Below, piece after piece: positions 2,722 to 64,000 of a stretch of DNA of 64,000 nucleotides. Numbering within the stretch: the stretch's first letter is position 1; each line of letters starts with the position of its first letter. Position numbers and translations under genes: made by a program. The notes under the pieces were generated by a model that worked only from the letters and a program-made list of their open reading frames with translations, was not told the DNA's origin and did no database searches. The stretch lies in contig NC_057737.1 of NCBI RefSeq assembly GCF_004010195.1, positions 48,909,173 to 48,973,172 of the forward strand. Reading direction: 5' to 3'. This DNA is from Chiloscyllium plagiosum. Its lineage: Eukaryota.

Positions 2722-3143
2722 ACGCCTCATCTTCCTCCTCGGAACACTTCAACCCCAGGGCATCAATGTGGACTTCAACAGTTTCCTCATTTCCCCTTCC
2801 CCCACCTCACCCCAGTTCCAAACTTCCAGCTCAGCACTGTCCCCATGACTTGTCCTACCTGCCTATCTTCTTTTCCACCTATCCACTCCTCCCCCCTCCT
2901 CCACTCACCCCCTCCCCCCGCCTCCTCCACTCACCTATTGTACTCTATGCTACTTTCTCCCCACCTCCACCCTCCTCTCACTTATCTCTCCACCCTTCAG
3001 GCTCCCTGCCTGTATTCCTGATGAAGGGCTTTTGCCCGAAACGTCGATTTTACTGCTCCTCGGATGCTGCCTGAACTGCTGTGCTCTTCCAGCACCACTA
3101 ATCCAGAATCTGGTTTCCAGCATCTGCAGTCATTGTTTTTACC
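2722..3143 (+). mobile_element. PLE 3' fragment (end of GIY-YIG plus terminus with hammerhead core) inserted in a minus-strand L2-like LINE (about 2520-3360)
   Basis: cgcctcatcttc...cttcaaccccagggcatcaatgtggacttc matches the other PLE copies; agatata on both flanks. Confidence 0.75.
3013..3050 (+). ncRNA. Minimal hammerhead ribozyme-like motif (PLE family A)
   Basis: CTGATGA(3018-3024) A GGGC-TTTT-GCCC GAAA CG TC: conserved core, 4-bp stem II, palindromic ACGT stem III; stem I weak. Confidence 0.65.
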
Positions 3144-3965
3144 TAGATATATTTCCAAGTCAGGATAGAAAGTAGCTTGGGGGGATGTGAGAGTTTGCTG
3201 GGGATGGTATTCCCGTGTATCTACTGCACTTGTCCTTTTAGATGGAAGTGGTTATGAGTTTGGAAGGTGCTGTCTAAGGATCTTTGAATTTCTGCAGTGC
3301 ATCATTTAGGTAGTATCCACTGCTGCTATTGTGTGATGGTGAGAGTCGATGCTTGTGGGTGTGATGTCACTCAAGAAAATATCATAATAAATACGCTGAT
3401 GAGACGTCAATGGGTAAACTGGGGAATACAGCTGGAATTGAAGTGTGGAATTTTCTCAATGAATCTACTGTTGTCAAATATGTCAAATGATACACACTGG
3501 TAGAGAAAGCATGGTTTACAGCACGTTCCTATATTTGTGACACGTGATTTCAGCACTCTGATAGGCACAGGAAATCTGTTTGGAGGATTTCAAATATTGA
3601 GTTCTAGGAAAGATGGGAACAGAATTGAGAAGTGACAACATAGTAAATGGAACACCTGTATGCAAGAAAGGAGAGATATGGAAAGCCAGAAACTGTAGGT
3701 CAGTAAGTCAAACATCTGTCGTATTGATGTTGCTAGAATAACTTGTTGAGATTATAGCAGGATAGTTAGAAAATCACAATTTCATCATGGCTTTGTGAAA
3801 GGGGAAATCTGTTTAACTAATGGAAGTTTTTCTGACAAAGTAGCTTCCATGGTGCACAGAGATGAGCCAATAGAGGTGGTGTTCTATTGTATTCTTGATC
3901 ATATCTCCACTAGATGACATCATAACATGTGACAGTGATGGAAAAATCTCCATCTTTTTGTCTGT

Positions 3966-4298
3966 CTGAGCATTGGTGGTGGAGTGAATGCAGAAGTTGG
4001 GTGTCAGTCAAGTGGGCTGCTTTGACCTGGTCAATGTTTATTCTCAGCATATTGATAGTGGGGGAATTCATTAGCAGTTCATCTGCTAGTAGTTAGTCAG
4101 TTCTGTGTGGTAGAATTTGTGGGTTTGGAACGTGCTGTTGAAGAAACCTTGGTGATTTGCTGTATTCCATCTTCAAGATATTGTGTACTGCTGCTACTGA
4201 GCATTGGTGGTGGAGTGAATGCAGAAGTTGGGTGTCAGTCAAGTGGGCTGCTTTGACCTGGTCAATGTTTATTCTCAGCATATTGATAGTGGGGGAAT
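3966..4298 (+). repeat. Exact 102-bp direct duplication (3966-4067 and 4197-4298)
   Basis: ctgagcattggtggtggagtg...gatagtgggggaat is present twice, identical, 129 bp apart. Confidence 0.9.
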
Positions 4299-5932
4299 CA
4301 CAGAGGTTTTATTGTGCAGAAAGAGGCCAGCTGGCCCATCATGTTTGCACCAGTTTTCTAAATAAGCATCATGACTTACTATCATTCTTCTCGTTTCCGA
4401 ATAACCTTACACATTATCTCTATTTGAATACTCAACTAACACCCTCTTAAATGGCTCAGTTGAACCTGTATCCACTATACTTCCAAGGAATGTATTCAAG
4501 ACCCACACAACCCATTGTGTGTTAAAGATTTTATTTTTCCCTCATCTTTATTTACTTATTTTGCCAAATACTTTAAATCTGTGTCCCATCATTCTTGATC
4601 CTTTTACGAGCTGGAGTAAATTCTCCCTACCTACTCTATCCAGCCCTCTCATGTTTTGAAAACTTCTATGCACTCTCCACCCTCTCCAATCTCTCCTCAT
4701 AACTGAAGTTCCTCATACATGGAAGCATTCTTCTGCACGCTCTCTAATGAGTTCACATCCTTCCTGTAATGTGCCACCCAAAACTGTACACAGTACTCCA
4801 GCTGAGATAAAACCGAGTCTTATACTCTATACCCCTATTAGTAAAGCCCAGGATACTGTATGCTTTATTAACTGCTCACTCCAGCTGTCACTCTTAAATG
4901 ATCTGTGCTGATATATAGGAGAAAGTAAGGACTGCAGATGTTGGAGATCAGAGCCAAGAGTGTGGTGCTGGAAAAGCACAGCAGGTCAAGCAGCATCCAA
5001 GGAGAGGGAGAATCGATATTTTGGGCATAAACCTTTCCTCAGCCTTCATTCGTGTCCTTTTCTCTGTATTCTTTTGGAGTTCTATGTTTTCTTCATAGAT
5101 TAGATGCTTCCAAGTTTAATATCGTCTGAAAAATTTAAAATTGTCACCTGCACAGAAAGCGTTTATAGCAATAGTAATGCCATTGCATATCAAGTTGAAA
5201 TGATTACATTCTGACTTCTTGGAGATGGTCATTACCTGACATTTGTGTGGCACAAATGTTACTTGCCACTTATCAGTCCAAGCCTTGAAATTGTCCATAC
5301 ATGACATCTACTAGTTCCCCTTTTTGTTACATATTTAAGGAATTCTACTGAATTAATAAAACAATTTCCCTTTGACAAACCATGTTGACTTGATTGTATT
5401 CTAATTTTCTAAATGGCAAACTTGCATAAGTGAGTGTGAGGTAGTAAATTAATAGCTGTAAAAATGTGGTCAGTGGAGGATCCCCAAAGGCTAAATTGTT
5501 GGTGATTTAAAAGACCAAAGTAAGTGATTTGGGGGCTAGTTCTTTTGCAAGGTAGTGACAGAGATTCAATGCAGAAACTATGGAAGAAAGCAGTGAACCT
5601 ATATCCATGAGAAGATATTTCTCGTATTTGGGAGGATTTTAATTGGGAGGTGAGAGAAGTGGAGCAAGGTGAGATGCTCAAAGAGAAATGTGCCAGAGGA
5701 TTAGGGACTCTGCCTAGGGCATTTGGTGATGAGAACTAGACTGTTATTGCGATGGCCTTAATCGACAAACAGTTAAAGATGTAGCCAGGAAGTGGGGGTT
5801 CATTAAGCAGAAAAGTATAGTCAGCCCTAGGCTAGATTTCTGTTAACACTGTGTTGCTACTGCAGTCATCCACAATTACTTCCAGTCAGGTTGCTGCACA
5901 CTTGTACAAACTCTTGAATTTCTCACTTGCAG

Positions 5933-6015
5933 AGTGGAAAAACTGTTCTGGCCAATTTTCTGTCAGATGCAACTGAAGCCATTGGTGGTGATTACAGTCC
6001 AACACAAGGTGTCAG
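5933..6015 (+). CDS. IFT22: IFT22 coding exon 2 (P-loop SGKT)
   Basis: ttgcag|AGT GGA AAA ACT...; SGKTVLANFLSDATEAIGGDYSPTQGV(R); AG/GT boundaries in phase. Confidence 0.93.
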
Positions 6016-13669: not shown

Positions 13670-13855
13670 AAGTGAGGGCTGCAATTGCTGGAGATCAGAG
13701 CTGAAAATGTGTTTTTGGAAAAGCACAGCAGGTCCGGCAGCATCCAAGGAACAGGAGAATCGACGTTTCGGGCATAAGCCCTTCTTCAGGAACGTCGATT
13801 CTCTGTTCCTTGGATGCTGCCTGACCTGCTGCGCTTTTCCAGCAACACATTTTCA
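13670..13855. mobile_element. PLE-terminus fold-back insertion (family A) with ~16-bp TSD
   Basis: Inverted arms; acacagtttgaaaaga on both flanks (about 13654-13669 and 13857-13871); hammerhead core on the minus strand at about 13761-13790. Confidence 0.85.
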
Positions 13856-16790: not shown

Positions 16791-19321
16791 ATGTAGCTAT
16801 TCCTTCAGTGTCGCTGGGCCAAAAACTGGTTAACATCCTCACTAACAGCATTGTGGGGACACAAAGCACATGGACTGTAGTGGTTGCAGAAGGTAGCTCA
16901 CAGCCACCTTCTCAAGTGCAACTAAATACTGGCCCGGGGTGATGCCTTTATCCTGTGAATGAGTAAGAAAGGACAATTCAGTAGTTCTACTTTTGACTTG
17001 CAGAGATGTTTGTCGTCAATGCTGTCTTCTCCAGTTTGTAAAAGGCTGAAATGGCACAACTGGGTTCTTTTCATCAAAGAGTCTTGAGAGATGTGGCTGA
17101 GAAGATACTCCAGGGAATTTCCCCTTAACATTTATGTGAATGGAATATTGGTCTGACATTTTATTTTGGCAACATTCAAGTACAGCCCAAGTCCCTTTTC
17201 TGCAGAATTGAAGAGATGTCAACAACACAGGAGGGTTCCAGATACTGTAGGTCACGTATGACTATGGTGGTCAATTTAGTTTCAGTAAGGTATGACCAAG
17301 TTTTTTAAAAGTTCTATTTAGATTGTGTTTAATAATCTCACTAGAAGGCACATGATGTCAGGAATATTGTAAATAGTATGCAGGCTACCACACAGACATT
17401 TCTGACACCAGTGCAGATTTTAAAGATGTCTGTTTCAGATTTTCTCAAGACAGTTGCAGTCATATTTAGAATTGAGATGAACTTTCTTGTTCACCAAAAT
17501 CTTTGGAGTACAATTCACAGAGCCTTGTAATTTGCTGAGTCAAATGCTTTGGTCAGGTCAATGAATGTTGTGTTCTTGTTATATTTATTTTGATATGTCT
17601 GACAAGAAAGACCATGTCAGGGGTTCCTCTGGAAAGTTGAAAGTCACACTCTGACCCTGGGAGGGTGTCCTCCGACACAGGAATTGGTGTTTCAGGAGAA
17701 TGTAGGTGAGGACCTTCCCTGCTATGGACAACAGGGAAATATCTGTTTCCACAGCATGATTAATCTCTCTTCATGAAGACAGAAAAGTAGATTATTTTTA
17801 GAAAGTGTGAAACTTAAATGTTGTTCAAAGAGATGTGTGCGTAGTTGTACAAAGACATGAATTAACATGCAGGCAATTGGGAAGGCAAATGACGTGGTCA
17901 CCTTTACTTCAAAGGAACGGCAGTACAAGAATCAGAAATGAATACTTCCACTTGCAAGAAGGATTCAAATGAGGGAACAATGCTTAAAAATAAGTTATTG
18001 ACCATTTAAGATGACGATGAAAATTCTGCTTTCTTTAGGAGGGCAGTGGATTTTCGGAATTCTGTTCTCCAGAGGGTTCGAGGTGAGTCATGGAATACTT
18101 TTCAAAGTTAGTTGGATTCTTGACTAACAAAGAAGCCAAAGGTTATCAAAGGCAGGCCAGGATGTGGTGTAGTGGTCACAATCAGATTACCTCTGATCGT
18201 ACTGATTGGCAGAGCAGGTTCAAGGGACTGAATGGCCTATTTCTGCCTCTAAGTCACGTTCGTTTGTCTTCTTACAATTGACTTTTGCGACCTTTGTGAT
18301 TCTTTGTCTGTCTACTTTGCTTTGAAAAACCGTCTTAAAACAACATTTTCACTCAGGCTTCGATCACCTCCCCTAATGTCTCTTCCGTAGTTTGGGATTT
18401 CTGTTCTTTCCAATAACCTTGTGTGCCTTAAAGTGTTTTGAATGTGAAAGTTATTGTATTGCTGAAAGTTTTTGTTGCCTGGGGAAAAAATACTTAAGCA
18501 GAAAACAGTGTGATAAATCTTGATTTAAGCTCTTTGATACGCATGCTTCTTCATATCAAAAAGGGTTCTGATCCAGGACTTTACTAGTCTAAAATATCAC
18601 ACTGCCCACCACCTCTCTAGCGAAGGGAGGATAATAATCTGAAACCTATGCCTGAGTCTCACTGGTGTCCTACTGCAGCTGAATTTCTCAATCTAAAACA
18701 TTTTGGGAAATTTTCCAAGAATTTGCATTCTCGCACAAACTCCTACTCCAATGCTTTGCAGACCCCAGTGAACAGAAAAAATGCAATTGCTCCTTTAACA
18801 ATTGTTTCTGGTAAGATTATTGTCATCTCTCAGAACTATGCTTCTGAGAAAATCTTAATCTACCACTCTTTATGAGTAAAGAGAGCTCTGTGTTTCTGAA
18901 AGGCGACTCCAATTAAGGTTCTTTCAGAAATGTAGAGTTGTATTTCCATTCCAACAATTCTTTCATTGTGCATAACTGTCAGGGAAAGGCAAATCATGGC
19001 CCCTCTTCACAACAGTTCGCTACTATTTCCTAAAATTTAAAGGTCCTCACAGCCACCTTGATAGCTGCTGTGGAATGGTAAATACATAGAACATAGAACA
19101 GTACATCACAGTGTAGGCCCTTCAGCCCTTGATGACCTTTTATCCTAGTCGGGAATGTGGTGTTGGAAAAGCACAGCAGGTCAGGCATTCCTGATGAAGG
19201 ACTTATGCCTGAAATGTCAATTCTTCTGCTCCTCAGATGCTGCCTGACCTGCTGTGCTTTTACAGCACCAAACTCTCGACTCTGATTTCCAGCATCTGCA
19301 GACCTCACTTTATCTTAGACC

Positions 19322-21118: not shown

Positions 21119-21297
21119 GAATCGACGTTTCGGGCATAAGCCCTTCTTCAGGAAATGAAGAGTGAAGATTTCCTGAAGAAGGGCTTATGCCCGAAACGTC
21201 GATTCCCCTGTTCCTTGGATGCTGCCTGACCTGCTGCGCTTTTCCAGGAACACATTTTCAGCTATGATCTCCAGCATCTGCAGTCCTCACTTTTTCC
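21119..21297. mobile_element. PLE-terminus fold-back insertion (family A) with 17-bp TSD, inside a minus-strand L2-like LINE (about 20660-22260)
   Basis: ttgagtgagagatatgc at 21102-21118 and 21298-21314; two hammerhead cores back to back (about 21122-21150 minus, 21173-21200 plus). Confidence 0.85.
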
Positions 21298-22329: not shown

Positions 22330-25100
22330 AGGACGATTGAAGTATAGTAGCAGTGGTAGTGATAGCGGACCCTATATCAGGTACTGATGGGCATTTCTAT
22401 GGTTGTGTGTAAGACTCCAGATTTATATGTTATCTCCTTGATGCCAGGGTCAAGGATGTCTCTGAGCGAGTACAGAATATTCTGAAAGGGGAGAGTGAGC
22501 AGCCAAACGTGGTCTAATTGGTACTAATGACATAGAAAGAGAGATGAGGTCCTGAGGGAAAGTTGAAAAACAGGAACTCCAGGATTGCAATCTCAGGATT
22601 ACTCCCTGTGCTGCATGCTAGTGTTGCCAGAAATAGGAAGGTAACACTAGTTGGATACCAACTTGCGGAATGTTTCAGAGAACATCTCTGGGATACATGC
22701 ACTAAACAGCCCCATTGCCCTGTGGCCGAACACTTTAACTCCCCCTCCCAATCTGCCAAGGACGTGTAAGTCCTGGGCCGCCTCCACCACCAAACTAGAG
22801 CCACCCGACACCTAGAGGAAGAACGCCTCATCTTCTGCCTTGGGACCCTCCAAATACACGAAATCAATGTTGATTTCACCAGTGGCCACCCCCTCATTCC
22901 TGATGAAGAGCTCATGCTCAAAACATCGACTCCCCTGCTCCTATGATGCTGCCTGATCTACTGTGCTTTTCCAGCACACACTTTTCGACTCTGATCTTCA
23001 GCATCTGCAGTGCTCACTTTCTTGTGATAGGCTAAGGAACGTGGTGGGACTAGCAGTTTGAAGTGTATTTATTTGCATTCAAGGAGTATATTTGATAAAG
23101 TAGATGAGCTTAGAACTTGGATTAGTACATGGGATTACGATGTGGTAATTATATATTAATCAGGAACTTGGTTGCGAGAGGGGCAAGACTGGCAGCTCAT
23201 CATTCCACAGTTTAGATGTTTCAGTAGCGAGGCCATATGGATACAACCTGGGAATGAGAAAAGTCCAATCGCTATGGTGCGATTATACATCAGGTCTCCC
23301 AATAGCCAGCGAGAGGTAGAGTAAGAGATGTGTGAGCAGATCATGGAAAGATGCAAAAACAACAATTGTTGTACTGGATGTTTATAACTTCCTCAATATT
23401 GATTGGGACTGCCATAGTGCCAGATGCTTAGATGGAGTAGAATTTGTTAGGAGAGTTTCTGGAAACAATATGTTGGTAGTTCAACTCAGGAAGGGGCCAT
23501 ATTCGACCTTGTACTGGGGCACAAGCTTGGTGAGGTGATCAGAGTTTCATAATCCCATAAATTTAAGGTAGTTATGGATAAGTATACAACTGGTCTTCAG
23601 CTGAATGTACTAAATTAGCAGAAGGTAAATTACAACATTATTAGGCAAGACCTGAAATTAGATTGGAAGCAGCTGTTTGAGGTTAATTCCACATCTGATA
23701 TATAGAGTCACAGAGATATACAGCACGGAAACAGTATGGGAATCTTTTAAAGGCCAGTTGATCAGAGCTCGGGTTCAGCTATTTCTTTGATGATAAAAGA
23801 TAAGGATGGCAAAATTCAGGAACCTTGAATGACAAGAGAGGTTGAAAGTTTAGTCAAAAAGATAAAGGAAACATATGTAAGATTTAGTAAACTGAAATCA
23901 GACAAGGCCCTTGTGTATAAAGGAAGCAAGAAAGAACTTAAACAGGAAATTAGGAGAGCTAGAAGGGGTCATTAAAATATCCATAGCAAGTAGGATTAAG
24001 CACAAGGCATTTAACACATATATGAGGAGCAAGAGAGTAACTAGGAAAAGGGTAGATCCATTCCAGGACAAAGGAGGGAATTTATACCTGGAGCCAGAGG
24101 AGGTGCATTAAAGAGTACTCACCATCAGTATTCACCAAGGAGAAGGACATAAATGACGGTAAGTTTAGAGACGGGTATGTTGACTCTGGCCACGTCGATA
24201 TTAAGGAAGAGGAGCTGTTGAGTGTTTTGAAAAACATTAATGTCGATGAGTCCCTTGGGCCTGATAGGACCTATCCTCTATCCTAGGATACTGAAGAAAG
24301 CAAGGGAGGAGATTGCTGGGACCTTGACAGAGATCTTTGTATCCTCTTTAGCCACAGGCGAGGTCACAGAAGACTAGGGAATAGCCAGTTGTTTCTTTGT
24401 TTAAGGGCAACAGGATTCATCCTGAAATTATTAATCAGTGGTAGGGAAGTTATTGGAGAAGATTCTTAGGGACAGGATTTGTTTGTATTTGGAGAATGTT
24501 CATATTGGAGAGAATCAGTCTCTCAAATTTGATTGACCTTTTTTAATAAAATGACAATGATGATTGAGGGTAGGACAGTGGATGTTGTCTACATTGACTT
24601 TACTAAAGCATGGGAAACGTCCCTCATGGTCAGCTGGTCCAGAAGATTGAATTGCATGGAATTTGTGGTGAATTAGTAAGTTGTATAACAAAATTGGTTT
24701 GGTCATAGAAAACTGAGGGTAGTTGTGGATGGGTGTTTTTCTGACTGGAGTTCTGTGACCACAAGGATCAGTGCTAGGTCCTCTGTTGTTTGAAATATAT
24801 AGATTTGGATTAAAATATAAATGGTCTGATCAATAATTTTGTAAGCAACACGAAATTAGATGGAGTTGTGAATAGTAAGCAAAGTTATTGGAGGATACAG
24901 CATGATCACTTGGCGAAAGCTGGGCGGAGAAATGGCAGATAGAGTTTAATATGGATGAGTGAGGTGATCCATTTTGGGAAGTCAAATGCAAGAGGAAAGC
25001 AGGACCCTTAGGAGCATTGATATACAGAGGGATCTTGTAAGTCCATCGCTGACAAGATAGTAAATAAGGCATATGGTATCCTAGCCTTCATCAGTCAGAG
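22330..25100 (+). mobile_element. Long degenerate CR1 LINE (ORF1 esterase region, APE endonuclease, RT) interrupted by a PLE fragment (about 22645-23025)
   Basis: Decayed esterase, endonuclease and RT motifs; ORF 22563..22769 joins CR1 ORF1 to PLE 'FREHLWDT..QPHCPVAEHFNSPS'. Confidence 0.75.
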
Positions 25101-25104: not shown

Positions 25105-25323
25105 AAATCACACAACACCAGGTTATAGTCCAACAGGTTTAATTGGAAGCACACTAGCTTTTGGAGCGACGCTCCTTCATCAGGTGATAGTGGAGGGCTC
25201 GATCGTAACAGAATTTATAGCAAAAATTTACAGTGTGATGTAACTGAAATTATACATTGAAAAATTGTTTGTCTGTTAAGCCTTTCATCTGTTAGAATAC
25301 AGTGATAGTTTCACTTCTTTCAT
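25105..25323 (-). mobile_element. PLE terminus, family B (hammerhead core near 25152-25187)
   Basis: aaatcacacaacaccaggttatagtccaacagg...ctagctt.ggagcgacgctccttcatcaggtga; same family as 43360-43800 and 47872-48597. Confidence 0.75.
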
Positions 25324-27219: not shown

Positions 27220-28020
27220 TAGAGTCATAGAGATGTACAGCATGGAACCAGAACCTTCAGTCCAAATATCCACGCTGACCAGATATGGGCCAGCAGTTGG
27301 CCCATATTCTTCTAAACCCTTCAGATAATCATCCATATGCCTTTTAATTGTTGTAATTGTACCAGCCTCCACTATTTCCTCTGGCAGCACATTCCATACA
27401 CGCGTGAAAAGGTTGCCCTTTAGGTCGTATTTCAGATTTTTCCCTTCTCACCTTAAACTTATGCTCTCTAGTTTTGGACTCCCTCACCCCAAGGAAAGGA
27501 CCTTGTCTGTTTACCTTATTCATGCCCCTCATGATTTTATAAATCTCTATAAGATCACCCCTCAGCCTTCGATGCTCCAGGGAAAATAGCCCCAGCTTAT
27601 TCAGCCTCTCCCTATACCTCAAACCGAGCGTGTGGTACTGGAAAAACACAGCAGGTCAGGCAGCATCTGAGGAGGAGGAGAATCGACGTTTTGGGCATAA
27701 GCCCTTCATTAGGAATGGCCTACTGATGAAGGGCTTTTGCCCAAAACATCGATTCCCCTGCTCCTCAGGTGCTGCCTGACCTGCTGTGCTTTTCCAGCAC
27801 CACACTCTTGACTCTGATCTCTAGCATCTGCACTCCTCATTTCCTATACCTCAAACCATCCAACCCTGGCAACATTCTTATAAATCCTTTCTGACCTTCA
27901 AGTCTCACAATATCCTTCATATTGCAAGGAGACTAAAACTGCATGCAGTATTCCAAAAGTGGCCTAACCAATGTCCTGTACAGCTGCAACATGACCTCAC
28001 AAATCCTACATTCAATGCAC
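27220..28020 (-). mobile_element. CR1/HER1 3' fragment with a nested PLE fold-back (27626-27842, 15-bp TSD)
   Basis: CR1 'LGLFSLEHRRLRGDLIEIYKIMRG'; cctatacctcaaacc at 27611-27625 and 27843-27857. Confidence 0.85.
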
Positions 28021-28166: not shown

Positions 28167-29206
28167 TGTTATGGACCAGATCAAACTCCCTCAAAATATA
28201 TAAAGAGTGTAGACGATGACGTTTTCTTATTTTAAAGGCAAGTGTAAGGGATTGTGTTCTGGTTGCAATTCAGTTGATCAAAGTACCAGGTTTGAAACAA
28301 AACACACTTTATTCATACGCTGTAATTAAAATGCAGATAAAATAAAAATTGGCTTAACTCTATGAAAATGCTTAAAGTAATATATATATTAACTACTAAT
28401 TGACTGTCCCAATATAGTAACATCCCATAAACACAAACCCACCCTTGTTAAAGGCAAATTCAATACAGTAAATTAGATTGTCTCACATGCATTTCTAGCA
28501 GCCCAGGAGGAAAGACATCAAAATAAAACTCAAGAATAGAAGGGAGAGATGCACTGTAGCTTCCAAACCCTGCTTCAAGACCCCAGCAACAAATGCTGCT
28601 GAAAAGTAAAACTAGAAAAAATTCTGGTTCTGCAGGATCTCGACTCCAACCATTCAAGCTGCTTCTAGATTAGATTAGATTACAGTGTGGAAACAGGCCC
28701 TTCGGCCCAACAAGTCCACACCGACCCGCCGAAGCGCAACCCACCCATACATTTACCTGATGAAGGGCTTATGCCCGAAACGTCGATTCTCCTGTTCCTT
28801 GGATGCTGCCTGACCTGCTGTGCTTTACCAGCAGCACATTTTCAGCCCTACATTTACCCCTTATCTAACACTGGGCAATTTAGCATGGCCAATTCACCTG
28901 GCCTGCACATCTTTGGACTGTGCGAGGAAACTGGAGCACCCGGAGGAAACCCACACAGACACGGGGAGAACATGCAAACTCCACACAGTCAGTCGCCTGA
29001 GACAGGAATTGAACCCAGGACTCTGGCGCTGTGAGGCAGCAGTGCTAACCACTGGGCCACCGTGCCAACCATTTCTATTGTAACAACTTAAAAACCCAAA
29101 GCTTCACAAGCTGTTTACTTTATTGGATTCAAATAGTCAGCTCAGTCTTAAAACATTTTTTCAAAAAAGAACAAAATACACCTCTTAAAGCCACTGTATC
29201 ATCACA
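28167..29206. mobile_element. Possible solo LTR (TG...CA) interrupted by an HE1 SINE (28666-29066, -) that itself carries a PLE terminus (28757-28845)
   Basis: Begins TGTTATGG, ends CATCACA; flanks ctta/ttta resemble a 4-bp TSD; the nested SINE and PLE are clear, the LTR call is tentative. Confidence 0.4.
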
Positions 29207-30624: not shown

Positions 30625-32190
30625 TACAGTCCTACAGCCCTCTGGTCCATGCTGACCAAAATGTCCATGCAAACTCCATTTCCCTGCACTTAGCCCATAT
30701 CCTTCTAAACCTTTCCTATCCATGTATTTGTTCAAATGCCTTTTAAATGTTGTTAATGCCTTATACTCTTCCGCTGACAGCTCATTCCATATGCGTCCCA
30801 TCCTGTGTAAAATAAGTTGTCCCTCAGATTCCCTTTTATTCTTTCCCCTTTAACTTCAAACTGATGCCCTAAAGTCATTGATTTTTCGTATGAAAACCAA
30901 CCATATGAAAAACATTGAGTGCATTAAACGTGCTTCTTATGATCTTACAACCCTCTGTAAGGTCCCCCCCCTCTGTCTCCTACACTCTAAAGAAAAAAGT
31001 CCTCGCTTGTCCAACACTCCCTATAACTCAGGCCATTCAGTCCGGGCAACATCCTTATAAATCTTGTCTGCACTCTTTCCAGTTTAATAACATCCTTCCT
31101 ATAACAAGGTGACCAAAATCGAACATAGACTCCAGGTGCAGCCTCACCAATGTCCTGTAAAATTGTAACACAAGTTCCCAACTTCTATACTCAAACTCTT
31201 GACTGATGAAGGCCAATGTGCCAAAAGCCGACTTCACTGCCTTGCCTATCTGTGACTCCACTTTCAGAGAAACGTGCACCTGAATGCCAAGATCCCTCTG
31301 TTTCACTACACTCAAGGCCCTAGCATTCACCATGAAACCCCTACCTTGATTTGACTTTCCAAAATGCATGACCTCACACTTGTGTATTTGCCATTTTTTG
31401 GCCCACTGTACCAAATGATCAAGGTCCTGCTGCAATTTCTGATAACTTTCCTCACTGTCCATGATACCTCCTATTTTAGTGTTATCTGCAAACTTACAAA
31501 TCATGCCTTGTACATTCTCATCTAAATCATTGATATAGATAACAAATAGTAAAGGGCCCAGCACCAATCCCTGAGGCACTCCACTAGTCACAGACCTCCA
31601 TTCTGACAAGCGTCCTTCCACTATTACCCTCTGCTTCCTACCATCAAGCCAATTTTGTATCCAATTGGCCAGCTTACCCTGGATTCCATGTGATCTAACC
31701 TTCCAGAGCAGCCTATCATGTGGAACCATATCCAAGGTCTTACTGAAATCCATACAGACTACAAGAAAGTAAGGATTGCAGATGTTGGAGATCAGAGTCA
31801 AAACGTGTGGTGTACAGCCAGCCAGGCAGCATCCGAGGAGCAGGAGAGTAGATGTTTTGAACATAAGCTTTTCATCAGGTCTACATCTATTGCCCTGCCC
31901 TCTTCAATCTTCCTGGTCACTTCATTAAAGAAGTCTTAACAAATTTATGAGGCATGATCTCCCACTCATAAAGCGATGATGACTACTCCTAATCAAACCC
32001 TCTCTTTTCAAATGGATGTTATTTGTCAGAATGTTCTCACGTAACTTACCTACCACAGATTGTTAGGCTTACTGGTCTATGGTTCCCAGGCTTTTCTTTG
32101 CAGCCCATCTTCAATAATGGCACAACATTCGCTATCCTCCAGTCTTCCAGGATCTCACCGTGGCTAAGAATAATGCAAAAATATCAACCA
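30625..32190 (-). mobile_element. CR1/HER1 LINE reverse transcriptase region with a small PLE insertion (about 31762-31878)
   Basis: ORF 31055..31864: MDFSKTLDMVPHDRLL...SGVPQGLVLGPLLFVIYINDLD...KFADNTK. Confidence 0.9.
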
Positions 32191-32209: not shown

Positions 32210-32410
32210 CTGAAAATGTGTTGCTGGAACAGCGCAGCAGGTCAGGCAGCATCCAGGGAACAGAAGAATCGACTTTTCAGGCATAAGCCCTTCTTCAGGA
32301 ATCCCGAAACGTTGATTCTCCTGATCCCTGGATGCTGCCTGACCTGCTGCGCTGTTCCAGCAACACATTTTCAGCTCTGATCTCCAGGATCTGCAGACCT
32401 CACTTTCTCC
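32210..32410. mobile_element. PLE-terminus fold-back insertion (family A) with 16-bp TSD (1 mismatch)
   Basis: tcttat(c/g)agcctagtg at 32194-32209 and 32411-32426; inverted arms. Confidence 0.8.
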
Positions 32411-32750: not shown

Positions 32751-35028
32751 AAAAAGGGAAGAAGTGAGGACTGCAGATGCTGGAGTACCAGAGTTGAAAA
32801 ATGTGGTGCTGGAAAAACACAGCAGGCCAGACAGCATCCAAGGAGCAGGAGAATCGACGTTTCAGGAATGAGGTTGGTGTGCCAAGCAGGCTGAGATAAA
32901 GGGTAGGGGGGGAAGGGCACTGGGAATACGATAGGAATGCAGGGGTTGGGACTGAGATAAGGTGGGGGGAGGGGAAATGAGGAAGCTGGAGAAATCTACA
33001 TTCATCCCGTGTGGTTGGAGGGTTCTTAGGCGGAAGATGAGGCGCTCTTCCTCCAGGTGTCGTGTGGTTCAAGGGCGGAGGTGCGGGAAGTGGAGGAAAT
33101 GCGGTGGAGAGTATCGTCGACCACGTCGGAGGGGAAATTGCGGTCTTTGAAGAAGGAGGCCATTTGGGTTGTTCGGTATTGGAACTGGTCCTCTTGGGAG
33201 CAGATGCAGTGGAGGCGAAGGAATTGGGAATATAGGATGGCATTTTTACAGGGGGCAGGGTGTGTAATCTAGGTAGCTGTGGGAGTCGGTCGGTTTATAG
33301 TAAATGTCTGTGTTGAGTCGGTCGCCCGAGATAGAAATGGAGAGGTCTAGGAAGGGAGGGAGGAGTCTGAGATGGTCCAGGTAAATTTGAGGTCGGGTTG
33401 GAAGGTGTTAGTAAAGTGGATGAACTGTTCAACCTCCTCGTGGGAGCACGAGGTAGTACCAATACAATCATCGATGTAGCGGAGGAAAAGGTGGGGGGTG
33501 GTGCCAGTGTAGCTGTGGAAGATGGACTGTTCCACATATCCGACGAAGAGGCAGGCATAGCTGGGGCCCATGGCTACTCCTTTGGTTTGGAGGAGGTGGG
33601 AGGATTGGAAGGAGTTGTTAAGAGTGAGGACCAGTTCAGTCATTCGAAGGAGGGTGTCAGTGGAAGGGTACTGGTTGGGTCGGCGGGAGAGGAAGACGCG
33701 GAGGGCTTGGAGGCCTTTGTGATGGGGGATGGAAGTATACAGGGACTGGATGTCCATCGTGAAGATAAGGAATTGGGGGGCGGGGAAGTGAAAATCATGG
33801 AGGAGGTGGAGGGCGTGGGTGGTGTCCCCAACTCAGGGGGACAGGACAGTGTCAAGGAAAGCTGAGACGGGTTCGGTGGGGCAGGAGCAGGCTGAGACAA
33901 TGGGTCGGCCGGGGCAGTCGGGTTTGTGGATTTCGGGCAGGAGGTAGAAATGGGCGGTGCGGGGTTGTGGGACTATGAGGTTGGAGGCGGTGGATGGGAG
34001 ATCCCCTGAGGTGATGAGGTTATGGATGGTCTGGGAGATGATGGTTTGGTGGCGGGAGGTGGGGTCATGGTCAAGGGGGCAGTAGGAGGAGGTGTCTGTG
34101 AGTTGGCGTCTAGCTGCAGCGGTGTAAAGATCGGTGCGCCAAACTACCACTGCGCCTTCCTTGTCTGCCGGTTTGATGGTGAGATTGGGGTTGGAGCTGA
34201 GGGAGTGGAGGGCTGCGTGTTGCGAGGGTGAGAGGTTGGAGTGGGTGAGAGGGGTGGACAGGTTGAGGCAATGTCGCGGCGGCAGTTGAATATGAAGAGA
34301 TCGCGGGCGGGTAAGAGGCCAACACGGGGTGTCCAGGTAGATGGGGTGTGTTGAAGGCGGGAGTTGGGGTTGCCAGAGGGTGGGCGGGAGTCCTGGTTGA
34401 AGAAGTAGGCGCGGAGGCGAAGGCGGCGGAAGAAATGCTCGATGTCTAGCCGCGTGTCGAATTCATTGATCCGGGAGCGTAGGGGATGAAGGTGAGGCCT
34501 CTGCTGAGGCACCTTCCCCTGCAACCATAAGAAGTGCTAAACTTGCACCCACACCTCCCCCCTCCAAGGCCCCAATGGATCCTTCCATATCCATTACAAA
34601 TTCACCTGCACCGCCAAATACATCATTTACTGTATCCGTTGCACCCGCTGTGGTCTCCTCTACATTGGGGAGACAGGCCTCATCTTCCGCCTAGGAACCC
34701 TCCAACCACACGGGATGAACGTAGATTTCTCCAGCTTCCTCATTTCCCCATCCCCCACCTTATCTCAGTCCCAACCCCCGGATTCAGCACCGCCCTCTTG
34801 ACCTGCAATCTTTTTCCCGACCTCTCCGCTTCCACCCCCTCTCCGGCCTATCACCCTCACCTCCTTCCACCTATTGTATTCCCAGCACCCCTCCCCCTAC
34901 CCTTTATCTCAGCCTGCTTGGCACACCAACCTCATTCCTGAAGAAGGGCTTATGCCCGAAATGTCGATTCTCCTGCTCCTCAGATGCTGCCTGGCCTGCT
35001 GTGCTTTACCAGCACCACATTTTTCAAT
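32751..35028 (-). mobile_element. Penelope-like retroelement (Neptune-like) with inverted architecture: minus-strand RT arm plus plus-strand GIY-YIG/terminus arm, 13-bp TSD
   Basis: RT motifs GRPIVS, MDIQSLYTSIP, QTKGVAMG, RYIDD in ORFs 33833..34150 and 33347..33757; Cys linker and YCIRCTRCGLLYIGETG at about 34510-34680 (+); taacaaatagtgt at 32738-32750 and 35029-35041; frameshifted. Confidence 0.9.
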
Positions 35029-40305: not shown

Positions 40306-40356
40306 ATACTAAGACTGTCTTCACTTACATGATCTGTATTCCTCTACTCCCTTCCT

Positions 40357-43357: not shown

Positions 43358-43800
43358 GTTAAAAATCACACAACACCAGGTTATAGTTCAACAGGTTTAA
43401 TTGGAAGTACCTTAGCTTTCGGAGCGACACTCCTTCATCAGGTGATAGTGGAGGGTCAATCCTCACACACAATTTATAGCAAAAAATTTACAGTGTGATG
43501 TAACTGAATTATACATTGAAAAATTGATTGTCTGTTAAATCTTTCATCTGTTTGAATACCATGATAGTTTCACTTCTTTCATGTGTAAATCACAAAGCTT
43601 TTTTTTAAAAAGTTGCATTCTCAGGTTAGCTGTTAACAATGGTGATAGCTAGACAATATGTTGAAGGTGTTAGCCCCCTGTGTTCTCTGTCTGTGCCATG
43701 ATGTTTAGATTGATTCTAATCTAAAAAGTGAGATAACAGAGTTCTACATGAATGCATGCAGTTTTTGAGCAAAGTACAATATTACCCTGCAAGTCCAAAT
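43358..43800 (-). mobile_element. PLE terminus, family B (hammerhead core about 43412-43445)
   Basis: High similarity to 47905-48270. Confidence 0.8.
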
Positions 43801-47871: not shown

Positions 47872-48597
47872 TTTGGAGATGCCGGTGTTGGACTGGGGTG
47901 TACAAAGTTAAAAATCACACAACTCCAAGTTATAGTCCAACAGGTTTAATTGGAAGCGCTCTAGCTTTCGGAGCGACGCTCCTTCATCAGGTGATTGTGA
48001 AGGGCTCGATCGTAACACAGAATTTATAGCAAAAATTTGCAGTGTGATGTAACTGAAATTATACATTGAAAAATTGATTGTCTGTTAAGCCTTTCATCTG
48101 TTAGAATACAGTGATAGTTTCACTTCTTTCATGTATAAATCACAAAACCTTTTTTTTAAAAAGTTGCATTCTCGGGTTAGCTGTTAACAATGGTGATAGC
48201 TAGACAATGTGTTGAAGGTGTTAGCCCCCTGTGTTCTCTTGTCTATGACCTGATGTTTAGATTGATTCTAAACATCATGGCACAGACAGAGAACACAGGG
48301 GGACAACACCTTCAACATATTGTCTAGCTATCACCATTGTTAACAGCTAACCCGAGAATGCAACTTTTTAAAAAAAAAGGTTTTGAGATTTATAAATGAA
48401 AGAAGTGAAACTATCACTGTATTCTAACAGATGAAAGGCTTAACAGACAATCAATTTTTCAATGTATAATTTCAGTTACATCACACTGCAAATTTTTGCT
48501 ATAAATTCTGTGTTACGATCAAGTCGTCCACAATCACCTGATGAAGGAGCGTCGCTCCGAAAGCTAGTGTGCTTCCTATTAAACCTGTTGGACTATA
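47872..48597. mobile_element. Family-B PLE fold-back: about 670-bp palindrome with 16-bp TSD
   Basis: Arms about 47930-48260 and 48268-48598 around a 7-nt loop (attgatt); atctgaatgtacatgt at 47856-47871 and 48598-48613. Confidence 0.9.
48535..48569 (+). ncRNA. Minimal hammerhead ribozyme-like motif (PLE family B)
   Basis: CAC CTGATGA A GGAGC-GTC-GCTCC GAAA GC TA GTG: stem I CAC/GTG, 5-bp stem II, palindromic AGCT stem III. Confidence 0.7.
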
Positions 48598-50210
48598 ATC
48601 TGAATGTACATGTGATATGGTCTGATCATTTCATGGTATTATTTGTAAAGGAAACTGGAAATTTGGTGTGGTTAACTGTTGGTGCGATTCTGCACTCAAA
48701 TCAATTCTGAATTGTATCCTGCTCACATACTTCCTATTGTTTAGAAATTACAGTGACCTGTAAATCTGCTTACAATTATCTTTCTTTTAAGTAGCCTATT
48801 AATCATTTGACCATCATCTGCTGTCTTTAATATTGTTGGAAGATAATATATCCCTGGACATTAACTATTAGTAGGCTGACTAGAAACACAAATAGCATAA
48901 CAAGAATAAAAATCCCTTACAAGCAAAAGTCTCAAACCTTACAGATCCACTTCCTTTACTTTCTGTTTTATCAGTTCATTTATATTTCCAGCATATCTTT
49001 AGTTATTCAGATAGGAAAATGATGGCAGTCTTGTGCAGATCCATCCAGTACAGGTCACCTGTGCCCAGTCTGATTGTCTAATCATGTTTCCAGTGTCCCA
49101 GCAATGCAAATCCTTTCCTACACCAGCATCTTTCTAGCTACATATTTTCCTGTCTTGTACTGACTTGGGAACACAATCCCCGGAGATCATGCTTCTGATC
49201 TCACATTTAATTTGCACAGCCACTCCGACATTCTGCGCACCATGATCGGTTTGTCCACATTGACTTCCTGTTTTGAAAGTCACTACACACATGGATCTGA
49301 CAGCCTTGCACAGCAGAATTAGTAATACTAATTACTAATACTAGTTATGATCCCAACTGATGGTAATACAAGTCAGATCCTAGAATTAAACCTAGCTTGA
49401 TGGATCATATTTTGCTACTTCAACACATCACCATGTCCCCTTGCCAACATCTCTTGCTGAAGCTTACTACAGTGCTCAAGTAAAGCTGAGCACAAACTGA
49501 AAGATCAGCATCTCATTTTCTTTTTGGGAACTCTGTAGCCTTTTGGATTCAATGGCGAGTTCAACTATTTTAGAGCTTGAGGACATGTCCTTACCCAAAC
49601 CCGCACACACCCAGTCTTGTCTTCATGTGGACTGCTACCACACACAGCTACCAATAGCCCCCATTAGCAGCTATTCATTTTCATGATTGACTTTTAACTG
49701 TTCATTTGTCTGTTTTTCTCTCTTTGGGCTCAATCTTCACTTATTGTTTATTCTGTACCCTCTCCCCACACCATCTTCTGTGTAAGTATTAATATTTTCT
49801 GAGCTACCATCAGTTCTGAAGAAGAGTCACTAGGATCTGAAAATTGACTTTGATTTCTGTCCACAGATAATGTCAGACCTGCTGAGCTTTTCCAGCAATT
49901 TCTGTTTTTGTTTCTGATTTCCAGCATCTGCAGTACTTTGGTATTTTGTGTATGTGTTGACGAAATATGTTTTTATCTGTTTGGTTAATGAACTTGGTGG
50001 TTAGTCACAGAGACATATCCTCTTGAGGTTTAGACTTTCTTTCACAGCACAATAGAATGTTGTTACATAAAAGAATAATTAAAAATACAAACTATCTAAA
50101 TGTAGATGACAATTAGTAAGTTCCAGCTAGAATCATAGAATCCCTATGGTGTGGAAGCAGGCCATTCTGGGTGTCCAGGTCCATTGTTCCCTGAAGTTGG
50201 CAATGCAGGT

Positions 50211-50898
50211 GGGCAATGCGCCCACACCTCCCCCCTCACCTCCCTCCAAGGCCCCAAAGGAAACTTCCATATCCGCCACAAATTCACCTGCACCTCCACA
50301 CACATCGTCTATTGCATCCTCTGCACCCGATGTGGCCTCCTCTATATTGGGGAGACAGGCCGGCTACTTGCGGAGCGTTTCAGAGAACACCTCTGGGACA
50401 CCCGGACCAACCAGCCCAACCACCCTGTGGCTCAACACTTCAACTCCCCCTCCCACTCTACCAAGGATATGCAGGTCTTTGGACTCCTCCATCGCGAGAC
50501 CACAACAACACGACGGTTGGAGGAAGAGCGCCTCATCTTCCGCCTAGAAACCCTCCAACTACAAGGGATGAACTCGGATTTCACCAGTTTCCTCATTTCC
50601 CCTCCCCCCACTTGTCTCAGTCAAATCCATCGAACTCAGCACCGCCTTCTTAACCTGCAATCTTCTTCCTGTCCTCTCCGCCCCCACCCCAGTCTGACCT
50701 ATCACCCTCACCTTGACCTCTTTCCACCTATCGCATTTCCGATGCCCCTCCCCCAAGTCCCTCCTCCCTACCTTTTATCTTAGCCTGCAGGACACACTTT
50801 CCTCATTCCTGAAGAAGGGCTTATGCCCGAAACGTAGATTCTCCTGTTCCCTGGATGCTGCCTGACCTGCTGCGCTTTTCCAGCAACACATTTTCAGT
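50211..50898 (+). mobile_element. PLE GIY-YIG endonuclease plus terminus (hammerhead core 50809-50836) inserted in a CR1 3' fragment (about 50165-51527)
   Basis: ORF 50151..50783: FTCTSTHIVYCILCTRCGLLYIGETGRLLAERFREHL...HFNSPSH; aatgcaggt duplicated at 50202-50210 and 50899-50907. Confidence 0.9.
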
Positions 50899-52790: not shown

Positions 52791-52905
52791 ACTCTTCTGC
52801 AGAATGATTTATCACAAGGAACTCCTTCTAGGAAAGAAACTAAACTTGCATCTGCATTCAAGTTTGGCATTTTCTGAATTAAATTTTTTTTAAACTTGCT
52901 TGATT

Positions 52906-55167: not shown

Positions 55168-55258
55168 GAATCGCTGTTGGTCATATCTATTATTTCTTGG
55201 AAGACGTATTTCCAAACCAACCTGGTGGGGGTCGGCTGCTCAGAACACCAAACATTTT
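55168..55258 (+). CDS. DERL2: Derlin-2 exon 6 (GxxxG motif)
   Basis: tttag|(G)[29 protein letters not shown](L)|gtaagt. Confidence 0.96.
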
Positions 55259-56166: not shown

Positions 56167-56350
56167 CAGTAGTCCCTCCGTACCTGTGGGGGATGTGTTC
56201 CAAGACCTACAAAACCATGGATAGGTGTGAACCCATTCATTTAAATGGGAAATGTACCTTCCCAGCAGCCCCTAATCCCTGGTTCCAGAAGGTAAACTGC
56301 AGGTAACTGTAACCGTGGAAACTGGACCCGTGGATATGGGGATCACCCTG
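56167..56350. mobile_element. Tigger/pogo-like MITE remnant
   Basis: Starts CAGTAGTCCCTCCGTACCTGTGGG, ends CCCGTGGATATGGGGATCACCCTG (imperfect TIRs). Confidence 0.5.
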
Positions 56351-56473
56351 CACTGTGTAGATTGTGACCTGATCTGATAATTCACACCCAGCCTGATATG
56401 CAAGTTTTGCTATTGACTATTGCATGTTGTTTCCATAACTAATCCCAGGAATGGGGTCTGTTTTCTCTGGCAG

Positions 56474-56579
56474 GAAAGTTGTTTTTGATATTCCGGAAGA
56501 AGACCCCAACTATAATCCATTGCCTGAGGACCGGCCTGGGGGTTTCAACTGGGGTGAAGGACAACGACTTGGGGGCTAG
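56474..56579 (+). CDS. DERL2: Derlin-2 exon 7 (terminal; SHP-box-like F.WGEGQRLG)
   Basis: [34 protein letters not shown]-stop; joined CDS 720 nt = 239 aa plus stop. Confidence 0.96.
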
Positions 56580-56678
56580 ATGCAAATCAGCTGTAAGCAG
56601 CAAACACTCTGCAGGATCTCAAAGGATGTATTTGTTCTCTTTTGCCTCCCTATGTTCCCTGTCACTCTGGTTCAGTTC

Positions 56679-59169: not shown

Positions 59170-59374
59170 GAGAAAGTGAGGACTGCAGATGCTGGAGATC
59201 AGAGCTGAAAATGTGTTGCTGGAAAAGCGCAGCAGGTCAGGCAGCATCCAAGAAGCAGGAGAATCGACGTTTCGGGCATAAGTCATTCCTGAAGAAGGGC
59301 TCATGCCCGAAACGTCGATTCTCCTGCTCCTTGGATGCTGCCTGACCTGCTGCGCTTTTCCAGCAACACATTTT
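59170..59374. mobile_element. PLE-terminus fold-back insertion (family A) with perfect 16-bp TSD
   Basis: tagatgtaatggacag at 59154-59169 and 59375-59390; about 75-bp inverted arms; hammerhead core about 59288-59315 (+). Confidence 0.9.
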
Positions 59375-60986
59375 TAGATGTAATGGACAGACAAGTGATA
59401 AGTGAAATTTAATGCAGAAAACTATGAAGCAATTTATTTTGATAGGAAGAGCAAGGAGAGAATATTCTAGGGGAAGTGCAGGAATAAATAGCTAGGGTAT
59501 AGGTGGAAGAATCTTGACAGTTTTGAAAAGGGTTAAGGAGGCTGGGTTGTAAAAATGAGGTGAAGGCTATAAAGACAAGGACATTATGGTGAACCTTTCT
59601 AAAATACTGGTTAACCTCAAATGAAATATTGTTCAGTTTTGGGTACCGCACTTAGGAATGGGAAGGATTTGGAGAGGGTACAGAAAAGATTCATAGTTAT
59701 GTGGATAGATTGGACAAGTTAGTTACCGGAAAAATACCGTAGCTGCTGTAAATATGAAACAAATGCAGAGAACACTGGAGAAACTCTGCAAATCTGGCAG
59801 CATCCGTGGAGAGGGAAACAAAGTTAACATTTCAAGTCCACTGGCACATCAGGACTGAAGAAGATTCACAGAAGACTTCTCTTTTCACAGATGCTGCCAG
59901 GCATGCTGAGTTTCTCCAGCATTCTGTGTTTGTTTGGATAAATTGGGATTGATCTCCTTGGAAGGGAGAAGGTTGAGAGGAAAAGAATAGGAATAAACCA
60001 TTCCCATTGGTGAAAGGATCTAGAGCAATGTGGCACAGGTATGTTGGAATTGGGGAGAAGGAATAGCAGGAGTAACAATAAATGCATAGAGACATGCTCT
60101 ATGACAGCGTGTGGTTCAAATCTGGAATATGCTGTTTTGAGTATTATGGTGGAGGTAGATTCAATTGGGACTTTCAAAAGGGAGTTAGAGAATTACTTGA
60201 AATGGGAGAATATGCAGGCAATGGGATAAAGGCAGGGCAGTGGCTGTAGGTGAATTACTCCTTCATAGAGTAATTATTCAGTAGTCTGAATGACCTCACT
60301 CTGGGTGGTAAACTTTCTGTGACTCATTTATGAGAATGGATCCAGAGATGAGGGACTTAATTACAAGGAAAGATTAGAGAAACTTGTTCGATTCTGCTTT
60401 AGAAAGGGTTGGAGGGAATTTTGATGTGACATTTAAAATCATGAGGGATCTGGACAGTCATTGAGACAAATTATTCCTAAAAGTGAGGTTCAATAACCTG
60501 AGAGCATAGATTTAGAGTGATTGGCAAAAGAATCAATGGCTAAAAGAAGAAAAAACACTTAAATGCAGTATGTTACCTGAGAATGTGTGGAGCCAAATTC
60601 AAAAAGGGTTTTCAAAAAGAAATTGGATCAGTATCTGAAATGAATATACTTGTGGGTTTGTGGGAAAAGGGCAGGGTTGTGGGACCAGTTGAGTGCCTCA
60701 TGCAGAGCTTCAACAGACCAAATGGTCTCCTTTGCTGTAACTATTCCACAATTCTTTTAAAAACTACAGCATACTGGAAGATTATAACCAGTGCATCACA
60801 ATCTCTACAATTACTTCTTTCACATAAGGATGCCGATCATGATGTATAGGTTGCCACTTAATTCCATTGATTTCACCAGGGCTACTACTAATGCTGGTTT
60901 TAAAGTTCCTCGTGCCTGCTACACCCTTGGTTCCTCATGATTCTAGGATTATTTTTGTGTCTTGTGAGAACAGATAAAGTTCATAT

Positions 60987-62255: not shown

Positions 62256-62477
62256 CACCGTTTTGGCTATTAATCTATTAGTATCATTGTAAATTTTACA
62301 CTTCCATCTAATTTGTTTATAATTTCATTTATCTTTGTTCATCAGGAAATTTGGATATGTCGTTATCTATCAAGTGGAAGATGATTGCATAGTGGTAATG
62401 TCACTAGTAATCAATCACCCCAGATTAAACATTTGCAAAATATGAATTTCAATCCCACCATGATAGAGAATGAAATT

Positions 62478-62870
62478 TAGAGTCATAGAGATGTACAGCA
62501 TGGAAACAGACCCTTTGGTCCAATCCATTCATGCCGACCAGATATCCCAACCCAATCTAGTCCCACCTGCCAGCACCCGGCCCATATCCCTCCAAACCCT
62601 TCCTATTCATATACCCATCCAAATGCCTCTTAAATGTTGCAATTGTATCAGCCTCTACCACTTCCTCTGGCAGCTCATTCCATATACGTACCACCCTCTG
62701 CGTGAAAACGTTGCCCCAGAAGTCTCTTTTATATGTTTCCCCTCTCACCCTAAACCTATGCTCTCCAATTCTGGACTCCCCAACCCCAGGGAAAAGACTT
62801 CGTCTATTTACCCTATCCATGCCCCTCATAATTTTGTAAACCTCTATAAGGTCACCCCTCAGCCTCCGAC
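62478..62870 (-). mobile_element. Young CR1/HER1 3' end
   Basis: ORF 62557..62892: RRLRGDLIEVYKIMRGMDRV...FKRHLDGYM. Confidence 0.9.
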
Positions 62871-62959
62871 AAGCTAGTCTAGTGGTGACCATTTAACTTT
62901 TGTTGATTATTGTAAAAGCCCATCTGGATTGATAATATCCATTAGAGAAGGAAATCTAT

Positions 62960-64000
62960 CATCCTCATATTGTAACAAGGTAGGATTAATCTCATTGTGA
63001 AGGCATTCCCTCGGTGTCAGCGACCATAATATGATTACATTTTACATTCAGTGTGAGAGAGAAGAGGGAGGTCTAAATTTCTAACTTCAAATAAGGGCAG
63101 TTATGAAGGTATGAAAGCAAAAATGGCTAAAGTGACTTGGCAAATGAAATAGGTCAGCAGAGACACAGTGGGATATTTCAGAATAGACACATTCCAACAA
63201 GTAAGCAAAATTCCTACAGATCCACCAACTGTGGTTAATTGGAGATGTTAAAGATGGTATCAAATCAAAAGAAAAAAAGAATATTTGTGCAAAGACAAGT
63301 GGCAGGTCAGAAGATGGGACAGAATATAAAAACAGCAAGAATGACCAAACTATAAGTAAGGAGGGAAAAATTGATAGTCAGAAATATAAAAACAAGTAAG
63401 TGTTTCTCTAAATATTTAGAGAGTTAACAAGGTGAGTGATTGCCAAAGTCAGATTGGAAAGTTAATAATAGAAAAGAAATGGCAGATTAATTGATAAGAT
63501 GTTTTGTATCAGTCTTCACTATCAAGGAGCTGAAAAGTGCAGCACTGGAAAAGCACAGCATGTCAGGCAGCAACCAAGGAGCAGGAGAATCGATGTTTCA
63601 GGCATAAGCCCTTCATCACTAGAGAGAATACAAGTAACATCCCAGAAGCAGCAATAAATCAGGAAATGGAGAGGAGGGAGGAACTATGGAAAATCTCAAT
63701 TGCCAGTGAAATAATACTACGTAAATTGTAGGAACTGACAAAAACTCAGATCCTACTGGACTTTATCCTAGAGTTTTAAAAGAAGTGCCTGATGAGCTAG
63801 TATCAGTTAAAACCAATGCATTGCTTTTAATTTTCCAAGATTCGTTGGTTCATGGATTGTTCCGTTAAATTGGAGGATAGTTAATAAACCAAAGGAACAT
63901 ATATTAAATGGTAGGACCCTAGGGAGTATACCCTTGAAGGTAGGTAAGGTGGCTAACGAGGTATTAGGATACTTGCCTTTATTAGTCAAGACGTTGAATA
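62960..64000 (+). mobile_element. Degenerate CR1 ORF2 with a PLE terminus insertion (about 63525-63620)
   Basis: Decayed SDHN, PWL and GLYPRVLKEV motifs. Confidence 0.65.

Follow-up and report, generated by a model that had tools for sequence, protein, structure and literature searches.

Minimal hammerhead motifs of probable Neptune-type Penelope-like elements in a shark genome and the likely copying of their short copies from uncut RNA

Minimal type I hammerhead ribozymes in the Penelope-like long terminal repeats (pLTRs) of metazoan Penelope-like elements were described in 2014, in a survey that counted about 9,000 in Xenopus and 4,000 in the coelacanth with descriptors different from those used here (Cervera and De la Pena 2014, PMC4209133). 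For the Poseidon element of the green anole, cleavage is assisted by protein and is dispensable for insertion in vitro (Frangieh et al. 2024, PMC11167929), and a putative TATA box and initiator (Inr) have been noted in a rotifer pLTR (Craig et al. 2021, PMC8557442; Arkhipova et al. 2013, PMC3846280). The stretch of DNA examined here, called the window, comprises 64 kb of the shark Chiloscyllium plagiosum (contig NC_057737.1, positions 48,909,173 to 48,973,172), in which a preliminary description had noted recurring hammerhead cores. We conclude that these cores are probably pLTR hammerheads of Neptune-type Penelope-like elements, and that the short 5'-truncated copies carrying them are likely products of reverse transcription of uncut RNA, now probably inert. 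How Penelope-like elements replicate, and what part the hammerhead plays in this, is an open question to which the insertion junctions are relevant.

The repeated motifs are minimal type I hammerhead motifs of the kind described in 2014, with self-cleavage predicted from their sequence, and their features fit the published description, as the preliminary description had proposed. The motif itself is ordinary and of a known kind. A strict descriptor (CUGANGA, stem II of at least 4 pairs, GAAA, NN and UH) found 12 matches in the window, against a mean of 0.05 and a maximum of 1 in 200 dinucleotide shuffles. Stem II opens with a G-C pair (G10.1-C11.1), and an extra base stands between positions 9 and 10.1, which is A in families A, B and C and U in family D. 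There is no loop 3, and positions 15.2–16.2 are palindromic, CG in families A and D and GC in family B. As claimed, an extra A follows A9, and the palindrome reads ACGU in family A and AGCU in family B. Stem I has 3 pairs in family B and 3 of 4 in family A, where the remaining position is a U-U mismatch. A search of the window with Rfam covariance models returned no hammerhead family among 20 matches at E values up to 1.

All 19 motif sites listed previously were found in the window, on the strands given and within 1–3 bases of the listed positions. The catalytic core is whole in 14 of the 22 near-complete motifs tabulated, 13 of which also have UH, while seven of the eight broken cores have lost G12 at a CpG. 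Only five motifs combine the core with a cleavable triplet, a full stem II, the palindrome and the stem I of their family. Four of these belong to family A: 3018..3045 (+), with the 3' untranslated region (UTR) upstream to about -270; 13762..13789 (-), head-to-head with a partial arm from 13791 (+); 50809..50836 (+), with a GUA triplet; and 59289..59316 (+), head-to-head with a partial arm at 59205–59296 (-). The fifth, at 48538..48566 (+), is a fully intact family B motif with a CAC/GUG stem I, a 5-pair stem II and a CUA triplet.

Reverse transcriptase (RT) and GIY-YIG pieces were found upstream of the motifs in broken copies, in agreement with the earlier proposal that the motifs lie in the termini of at least two Penelope-like families. 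Pfam searches detected a GIY-YIG domain (E 2.7e-4) upstream of the motif at 50809, in a 5'-truncated family A element with a 3' UTR at 50215..50897 (+; 5' boundary approximate), and RT (E 2e-5) at 33350–33832, in a broken family A element at 32767..34507 (-) that has a tail and a 3'-end motif from which stem II is deleted. The latter is followed by an inverted 5'-truncated partner at 34508..35027 (+), with a CX4CxxC-type linker interrupted by a stop, a GIY-YIG piece, a 3' UTR and the motif 34938–34965. The window copies of family B are 90–96% identical to the 3' UTR of a copy elsewhere that carries RT (E 1.9e-8) and GIY-YIG. This evidence comes from pieces of broken copies, and many long element bodies in the sampled stretches read N. 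The linker between RT and endonuclease is CX4CxxC, with the stop, in the window copy of family A; in the one family B copy read, the CxxC is present and the first Cys is changed. By the criterion of PMC8557442 a linker sequence of the CX4CxxC type points to the Neptune clade, although Nematis also has a linker.

The element reading frame begins 121 (family B) or about 165 (family A) bases downstream of the core, so that the motif lies 120–165 bases ahead of it and just before two preferred 3' ends of the copies (a short end and a tail), which are about 37 bases apart. Head-to-head pairs are frequent among the copies, and the tail was found on exactly one arm in 51 of 60 such pairs of family A and in all 12 pairs of family B, a known Penelope signature that matches the two RT start sites described in PMC11167929. 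Within the window the copies are solos or inverted pairs, and intact motifs of a single family never stand in tandem on the same strand. Tandem units of 248–300 bases, each with a motif, occur at other loci in this genome. At three such loci (L156, L162 and L164; also L149, L150, L161 and L163) the units hold a family A motif, the tail and the start of the reading frame; an identical deletion junction recurs at several of them with differing unit numbers, which is retrozyme-like.

The 5' ends of genomic copies were located in a sample of 1.46 Mb (seven 200-kb blocks and the window) containing 239 family A and 63 family B copies; each was anchored on sequence past the cut site and followed upstream by comparison with natural long-UTR copies. 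In family A, 115 of the 183 copies at risk have their 5' end in the interval from +6 to -12 of the first core base, which is 11 times the rate in the next 88 upstream bases (p 4e-35). Family B has the same cliff, with 24 of 43 copies at risk ending there (10 times; p 5e-8). Only 6 of 226 family A and 2 of 59 family B copies end at the cut site, a rate equal to that of neighbouring positions. The pile-up at the front edge persists among non-inverted copies (48/106 in family A and 10/20 in family B) and among young copies. As copy ends do not accumulate at the cut site, the reverse transcriptase appears to have passed the scissile bond on templates that were mostly uncut. Most copies stop at the front edge of the motif, likely because the copied RNA starts there and is not cut. 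The junctions argue for an uncut template and suggest that the RNA has a precise 5' end and poly(A) site.

In master elements the motif would fold as a dimer or with the help of an element protein, and would act late or rarely. Reverse transcription would start at the tail sites, pass the uncut ribozyme and mostly end at the RNA 5' end just ahead of it, and this would account for the very high copy number. In family B this RNA 5' end would lie about 30 bases past a TATA box, with a working poly(A) signal following the ribozyme. The word TATAAAT lies at -35 to -39 in 12 of the 16 family B copies that reach this far (14 of 16 within one mismatch), and is represented in the window by a candidate TATA box at 48500..48506 (+), 38 bases before the core. 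The commonest family B breakpoints, -8 and -7, are about 30 bases past TATAAAT and account for 13 of 128 copies, 65 of which were picked by pattern. AATAAA (32 copies) or ATTAAA (24) follows the ribozyme in 56 of 63 family B copies, in an alignment whose anchor fixed part of the word; the window example is ATTAAA at 48578..48583 (+), 11 bases past the predicted cut. The 3' ends of family B genomic copies, at +80–90 and +115–124, are past the poly(A) site.

An RNA sequencing run (X19) was also examined; it represents one sample, of which about 2 in 100 of the reads were covered, and it carries a species label that is not a proven match to this genome. Family B reads were mostly one-stranded, with a sense depth of 764–847 across the motif and the cut site, and 660 reads had poly(A) 12–15 bases after the hexamer. 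Family A reads came from both strands and 97 in 100 continued into unlike sequence. The X19 reads may come from host transcripts.

Together these features suggest a layout like that of an LTR, with the short copies being run-off products of the 5' end of the RNA. We tentatively extend this to a possible arrangement in which the Neptune pLTR would correspond in function to the U3-R-U5 of an LTR and the short copies would be strong-stop products. Transcription would start about 30 bases past the TATA box, at the front of the hammerhead, and the poly(A) site would lie past the ribozyme. Because the RT start sites lie past the poly(A) site, a polyadenylated element RNA would carry them only close to its 5' end. 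Strong-stop DNA of 90–130 bases would then result from target-primed reverse transcription, and it would either integrate as a short hammerhead-headed copy or jump to the 3' repeat and copy the body. If true, this would account for the approximately 190,000 motifs, the 5'-end cliff and the tandem structure with no need for cleavage, and working poly(A) signals would be spread over the genome by family B copies. Priming at the poly(A) end was considered as a source of copies and rejected, as only the window copy at 48538, among 87, truly ends near +60, and it has no A run. In that copy (48578–48597, +) a sense ATTAAA lies in an intron of the gene named below as DERL2 and the arm ends at the poly(A) position. 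Early polyadenylation in this gene is possible, perhaps masked by the 340-base hairpin.

The main rival to the U3-R-U5 arrangement concerns the same elements and holds that the front-edge pile-up comes from junction chemistry or RT stalling and not from an RNA 5' end. ATT-type ends left by the endonuclease would anneal to the ATTC of the element at -3, and the cDNA would fold back after the self-complementary motif was copied. The anole enzyme prefers ATT, solo duplications of family A often end in GAT or GATT, overlapping the ATT of the element (about 7 of 30 loci by eye), and copies end at the edge more often when inverted (67/77) than when solo (48/106). However, the GATT at the cut site (+29) is an equally good match and has no peak, and family B, which differs in sequence, has the same cliff. 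In addition, none of 10 non-inverted family B copies ends in the AT-rich 88 bases upstream, and the family B mode (-8/-7) is about 30 bases past TATAAAT. We regard junction chemistry as a possible but doubtful cause of the pile-up.

Four further explanations for features of the 5' junctions did not hold up. A cap-derived G was suggested by the genome-wide counts before ATTC (5,136 for G and 2,752 for A), but at 30 loci inspected by eye about 18 of the Gs were explained by an inverted arm or a host target-site duplication and about 12 were not. Template switching between two ATTC words would give 32-base tandems, and only 19 were found genome-wide. Spliced templates were examined, and there was no peak at a candidate acceptor near -18 and no upstream exon common to edge copies. 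For cutting in a type III register upstream of the core, no fitting triplet and stem was seen by eye. Separately, the target-site duplications of 7–14 bases at the solo family A loci L171–L183 frequently terminate in GAT or GATT, which may reflect a preference of the endonuclease.

It is improbable, in our assessment, that the ribozymes cleave efficiently in vivo as dimers, freeing unit RNAs or circles that drive copying, with dispersed copies cutting host transcripts. Conservation between lineages extends to the core, stem II, the extra base and the palindrome, and the 248–300 base tandem units elsewhere in the genome could dimerise in cis; published minimal hammerheads do show low dimer activity (PMC4209133). 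Against this, the copy ends have no peak at the cut site and abundant RNA spans it in X19. Nearest-neighbour calculations, which consider secondary structure only, placed the double-hammerhead fold well behind its competitors (-17.7 against -33.1 kcal/mol for family B and -10.5 against -24.1 kcal/mol for family A). Moreover, for seven inverted pairs of the window the predicted fold is a hairpin with 70–94% of bases paired, and 8 of 9 frog dimers were uncleaved in vitro.

That the motif is only a protein-binding or promoter-proximal structure, non-catalytic even in master elements, is very unlikely: stem I of family A has only 3 pairs and a U-U mismatch, and cleavage mutants of the anole element insert normally in vitro, yet families A, B and D retain every catalytic base together with a cleavable triplet as their stems change by compensation, and the anole motif does cleave with protein (PMC11167929).

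Conservation of the core was examined using base-matched columns, leaving out CpG and subfamily-split columns. The core had fewer departures than expected when subfamilies were pooled (25 against 38.7, p 0.007) but not within subfamily A1 (14 against 14.2 in 49 copies), and the groups of family B (17 and 19 copies) had no difference between core and flank. As the pooled deficit is absent within A1, the constraint appears to lie between master lineages and not clearly after insertion. G12 was lost in 30 of 132 gap-free family A copies, comparable with other CpG sites (33 and 24). The core-versus-flank comparison that had been recommended is, for copies, chiefly a measure of neutral post-insertion decay; inside a single subfamily the core was no better kept, though departures were fewer in the pooled set. 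The motif would be under selection only in a few master elements. The structural covariation proposed from families A and B does not stand as stated, since these are not aligned homologues, but compensatory stem I pairs do exist in related families. In family D the outer pair of stem I varies among G-C, C-G and U-A, and some family C copies have 4 stem I pairs where family A has the U-U mismatch.

Several observations weigh against the conclusion that the short copies are now-inert products of uncut Neptune-type RNA. Subfamily A2 had no core departures where 2.4 were expected (p 0.08; 28 copies). Exact target-site duplications flank few of the non-inverted copies that end at the edge, 8 of 48 in family A (control 1/48) and 1 of 10 in family B (control 0/10), so some of these ends may be unrecognised subfamilies. 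Both of the Pfam matches in the window are below the curated cut-offs. Family A copies have no clear TATA box or poly(A) signal, with a TTATCT-like word at -33 to -35 in 32 of 42 and AWTAAA in 19 of 239. RNA starts in X19 do not pile up at the front edge of the motif. In favour of the conclusion, X19 molecule ends do not pile up at the cut site in either family, but this absence is weak evidence because short reads selected for poly(A) would not capture the products of cleavage (a 30-base 3' piece and a non-adenylated 5' piece).

A loose core pattern gave 188,193 matches in the 3,556-Mb genome compared with 41 for a reversed control, and the exact patterns of families A and B gave 45,146 and 5,931, respectively. 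Among 48 loose matches in 800 kb, stem II had at least 4 pairs in 39, and 29 also had the palindrome. The window contains 11 loose matches, about 170 per Mb against a genome average of 53. The very high genome-wide load that had been extrapolated from about 20 copies in 64 kb is thus real, but the window is about 3 times denser than the genome. The load is about 20 times the highest count of the 2014 survey, which makes very large samples of insertion junctions available.

The other family A motifs of the window are decayed or damaged to differing degrees. The core is intact in the two arms of an inverted pair at 21124..21151 (-) and 21173..21200 (+), and at 28757..28784 (+), where the 5' junction cuts stem I to 1 pair. 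It is kept at 19191..19218 (+), with damage to stem II and the palindrome, and at 32271..32298 (-), with a broken palindrome and a partial partner arm from 32303 (+). G12 is lost at 1132..1159 (-), whose inverted partner arm starts at about 1160 (+), at 22900..22927 (+) and at 27723..27750 (+), the partner arm of 27685..27712 (-), which has lost both G5 and G12. The motif at 63592..63619 (-) has C3 missing at the 5' junction. Three decayed motifs, 5015..5042 (-), 27723–27750 and 31851..31878 (-), were absent from the earlier list, as were several partial inverted arms.

In family B, the motif reported at 25152 (-) as a plain one proved to be a copy at 25155..25183 (-) that has lost G12. Stem I is damaged at the two minus-strand motifs with intact cores, being lost at 43413..43441 (-) and having one mismatch at 47962..47990 (-). 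The latter and the intact motif at 48538 belong to a single insertion at 47872..48597, made up of two head-to-head arms on both strands and flanked by a 16-base target-site duplication (47856–47871/48598–48613).

The third decayed version that had been reported at 49816 is present at 49816..49846 (+). It belongs to an older family (C), has downstream sequence related to family A, and carries G at position 17. Further decayed remnants of family C are found at 36774–36867 (-) and 59731–59935, and one pair is head-to-head. Family D was seen in the genome sample (e.g. blocks C5, C8 and C12) and not in the window when searched with the descriptor. It has U as the extra base and a 6-pair stem II that begins with an ATG, like that of the anole Poseidon element; a TATA-like word lies about 50 bases upstream, and most copies seen run past the front edge of the motif.

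The single-exon MIS12 reading frame at 35504–36286 (-) is head-to-head with a gene at 37716–56590 (+), whose exons, from 37716 to about 56590, are probably those of DERL2, judging by protein motifs. The motifs from 43413 to 50836 sit in its introns. A long inverted repeat at 14962–15147 has weak matches to microRNA families, below their cut-offs. RT pieces of another non-LTR retrotransposon, presumably CR1-like, are at 31055–31903 (-) and 52878–53789 (+).

Literature searches for a shark report, on pLTR start sites, on strong-stop DNA or template switching and on poly(A) signals or TATA boxes in pLTRs yielded no 5'-end pile-up or LTR-like reading among the matches listed; subscription papers and bioRxiv supplements were outside these searches. 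The two supplement files of PMC4209133 that were searched contain no shark term. The hammerheads described in that paper resemble those of the window in their type I core without loop 3, the extra base between 9 and 10.1, the G10.1-C11.1 pair, the palindromic 15.2–16.2, and their occurrence mostly as single or opposite-strand copies from truncated elements. They differ in stem II, which has 4–5 pairs here and 7–8 in Schistosoma, in the U-U mismatch in stem I of family A, and in number, with about 188,000 loose matches here set against the Xenopus and coelacanth counts obtained with other descriptors.

Poseidon of the green anole (PMC11167929) also has a pLTR hammerhead, two internal RT start sites that define the tail, an uncut RNA template and RNA-seq ends that are absent at the cut site. 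Its reading frame starts in stem II, whereas here it starts 121 (family B) or about 165 (family A) bases past the core, and the 5'-end pile-up, TATA box and poly(A) signal are not reported for it in the available parts of that paper. Elements of the Neptune clade (PMC8557442, PMC3846280) share the RT, the C-terminal GIY-YIG domain, an inverted 5'-truncated partner, a tail of 30–40 bases and target-site duplications, and they have a CX2-5CxxC linker that the family A sequence, with its stop, resembles. A used poly(A) signal beside the ribozyme, as found here, was not met in the available parts of these two papers. Non-LTR retrozymes from PLE (Penelope-like element) pLTRs (bioRxiv 10.64898/2026.07.22.740005) are likewise pLTR-derived repeats with type I hammerheads, and their counterpart in this genome is the retrozyme-like tandem units of 248–300 bases at loci other than the window.

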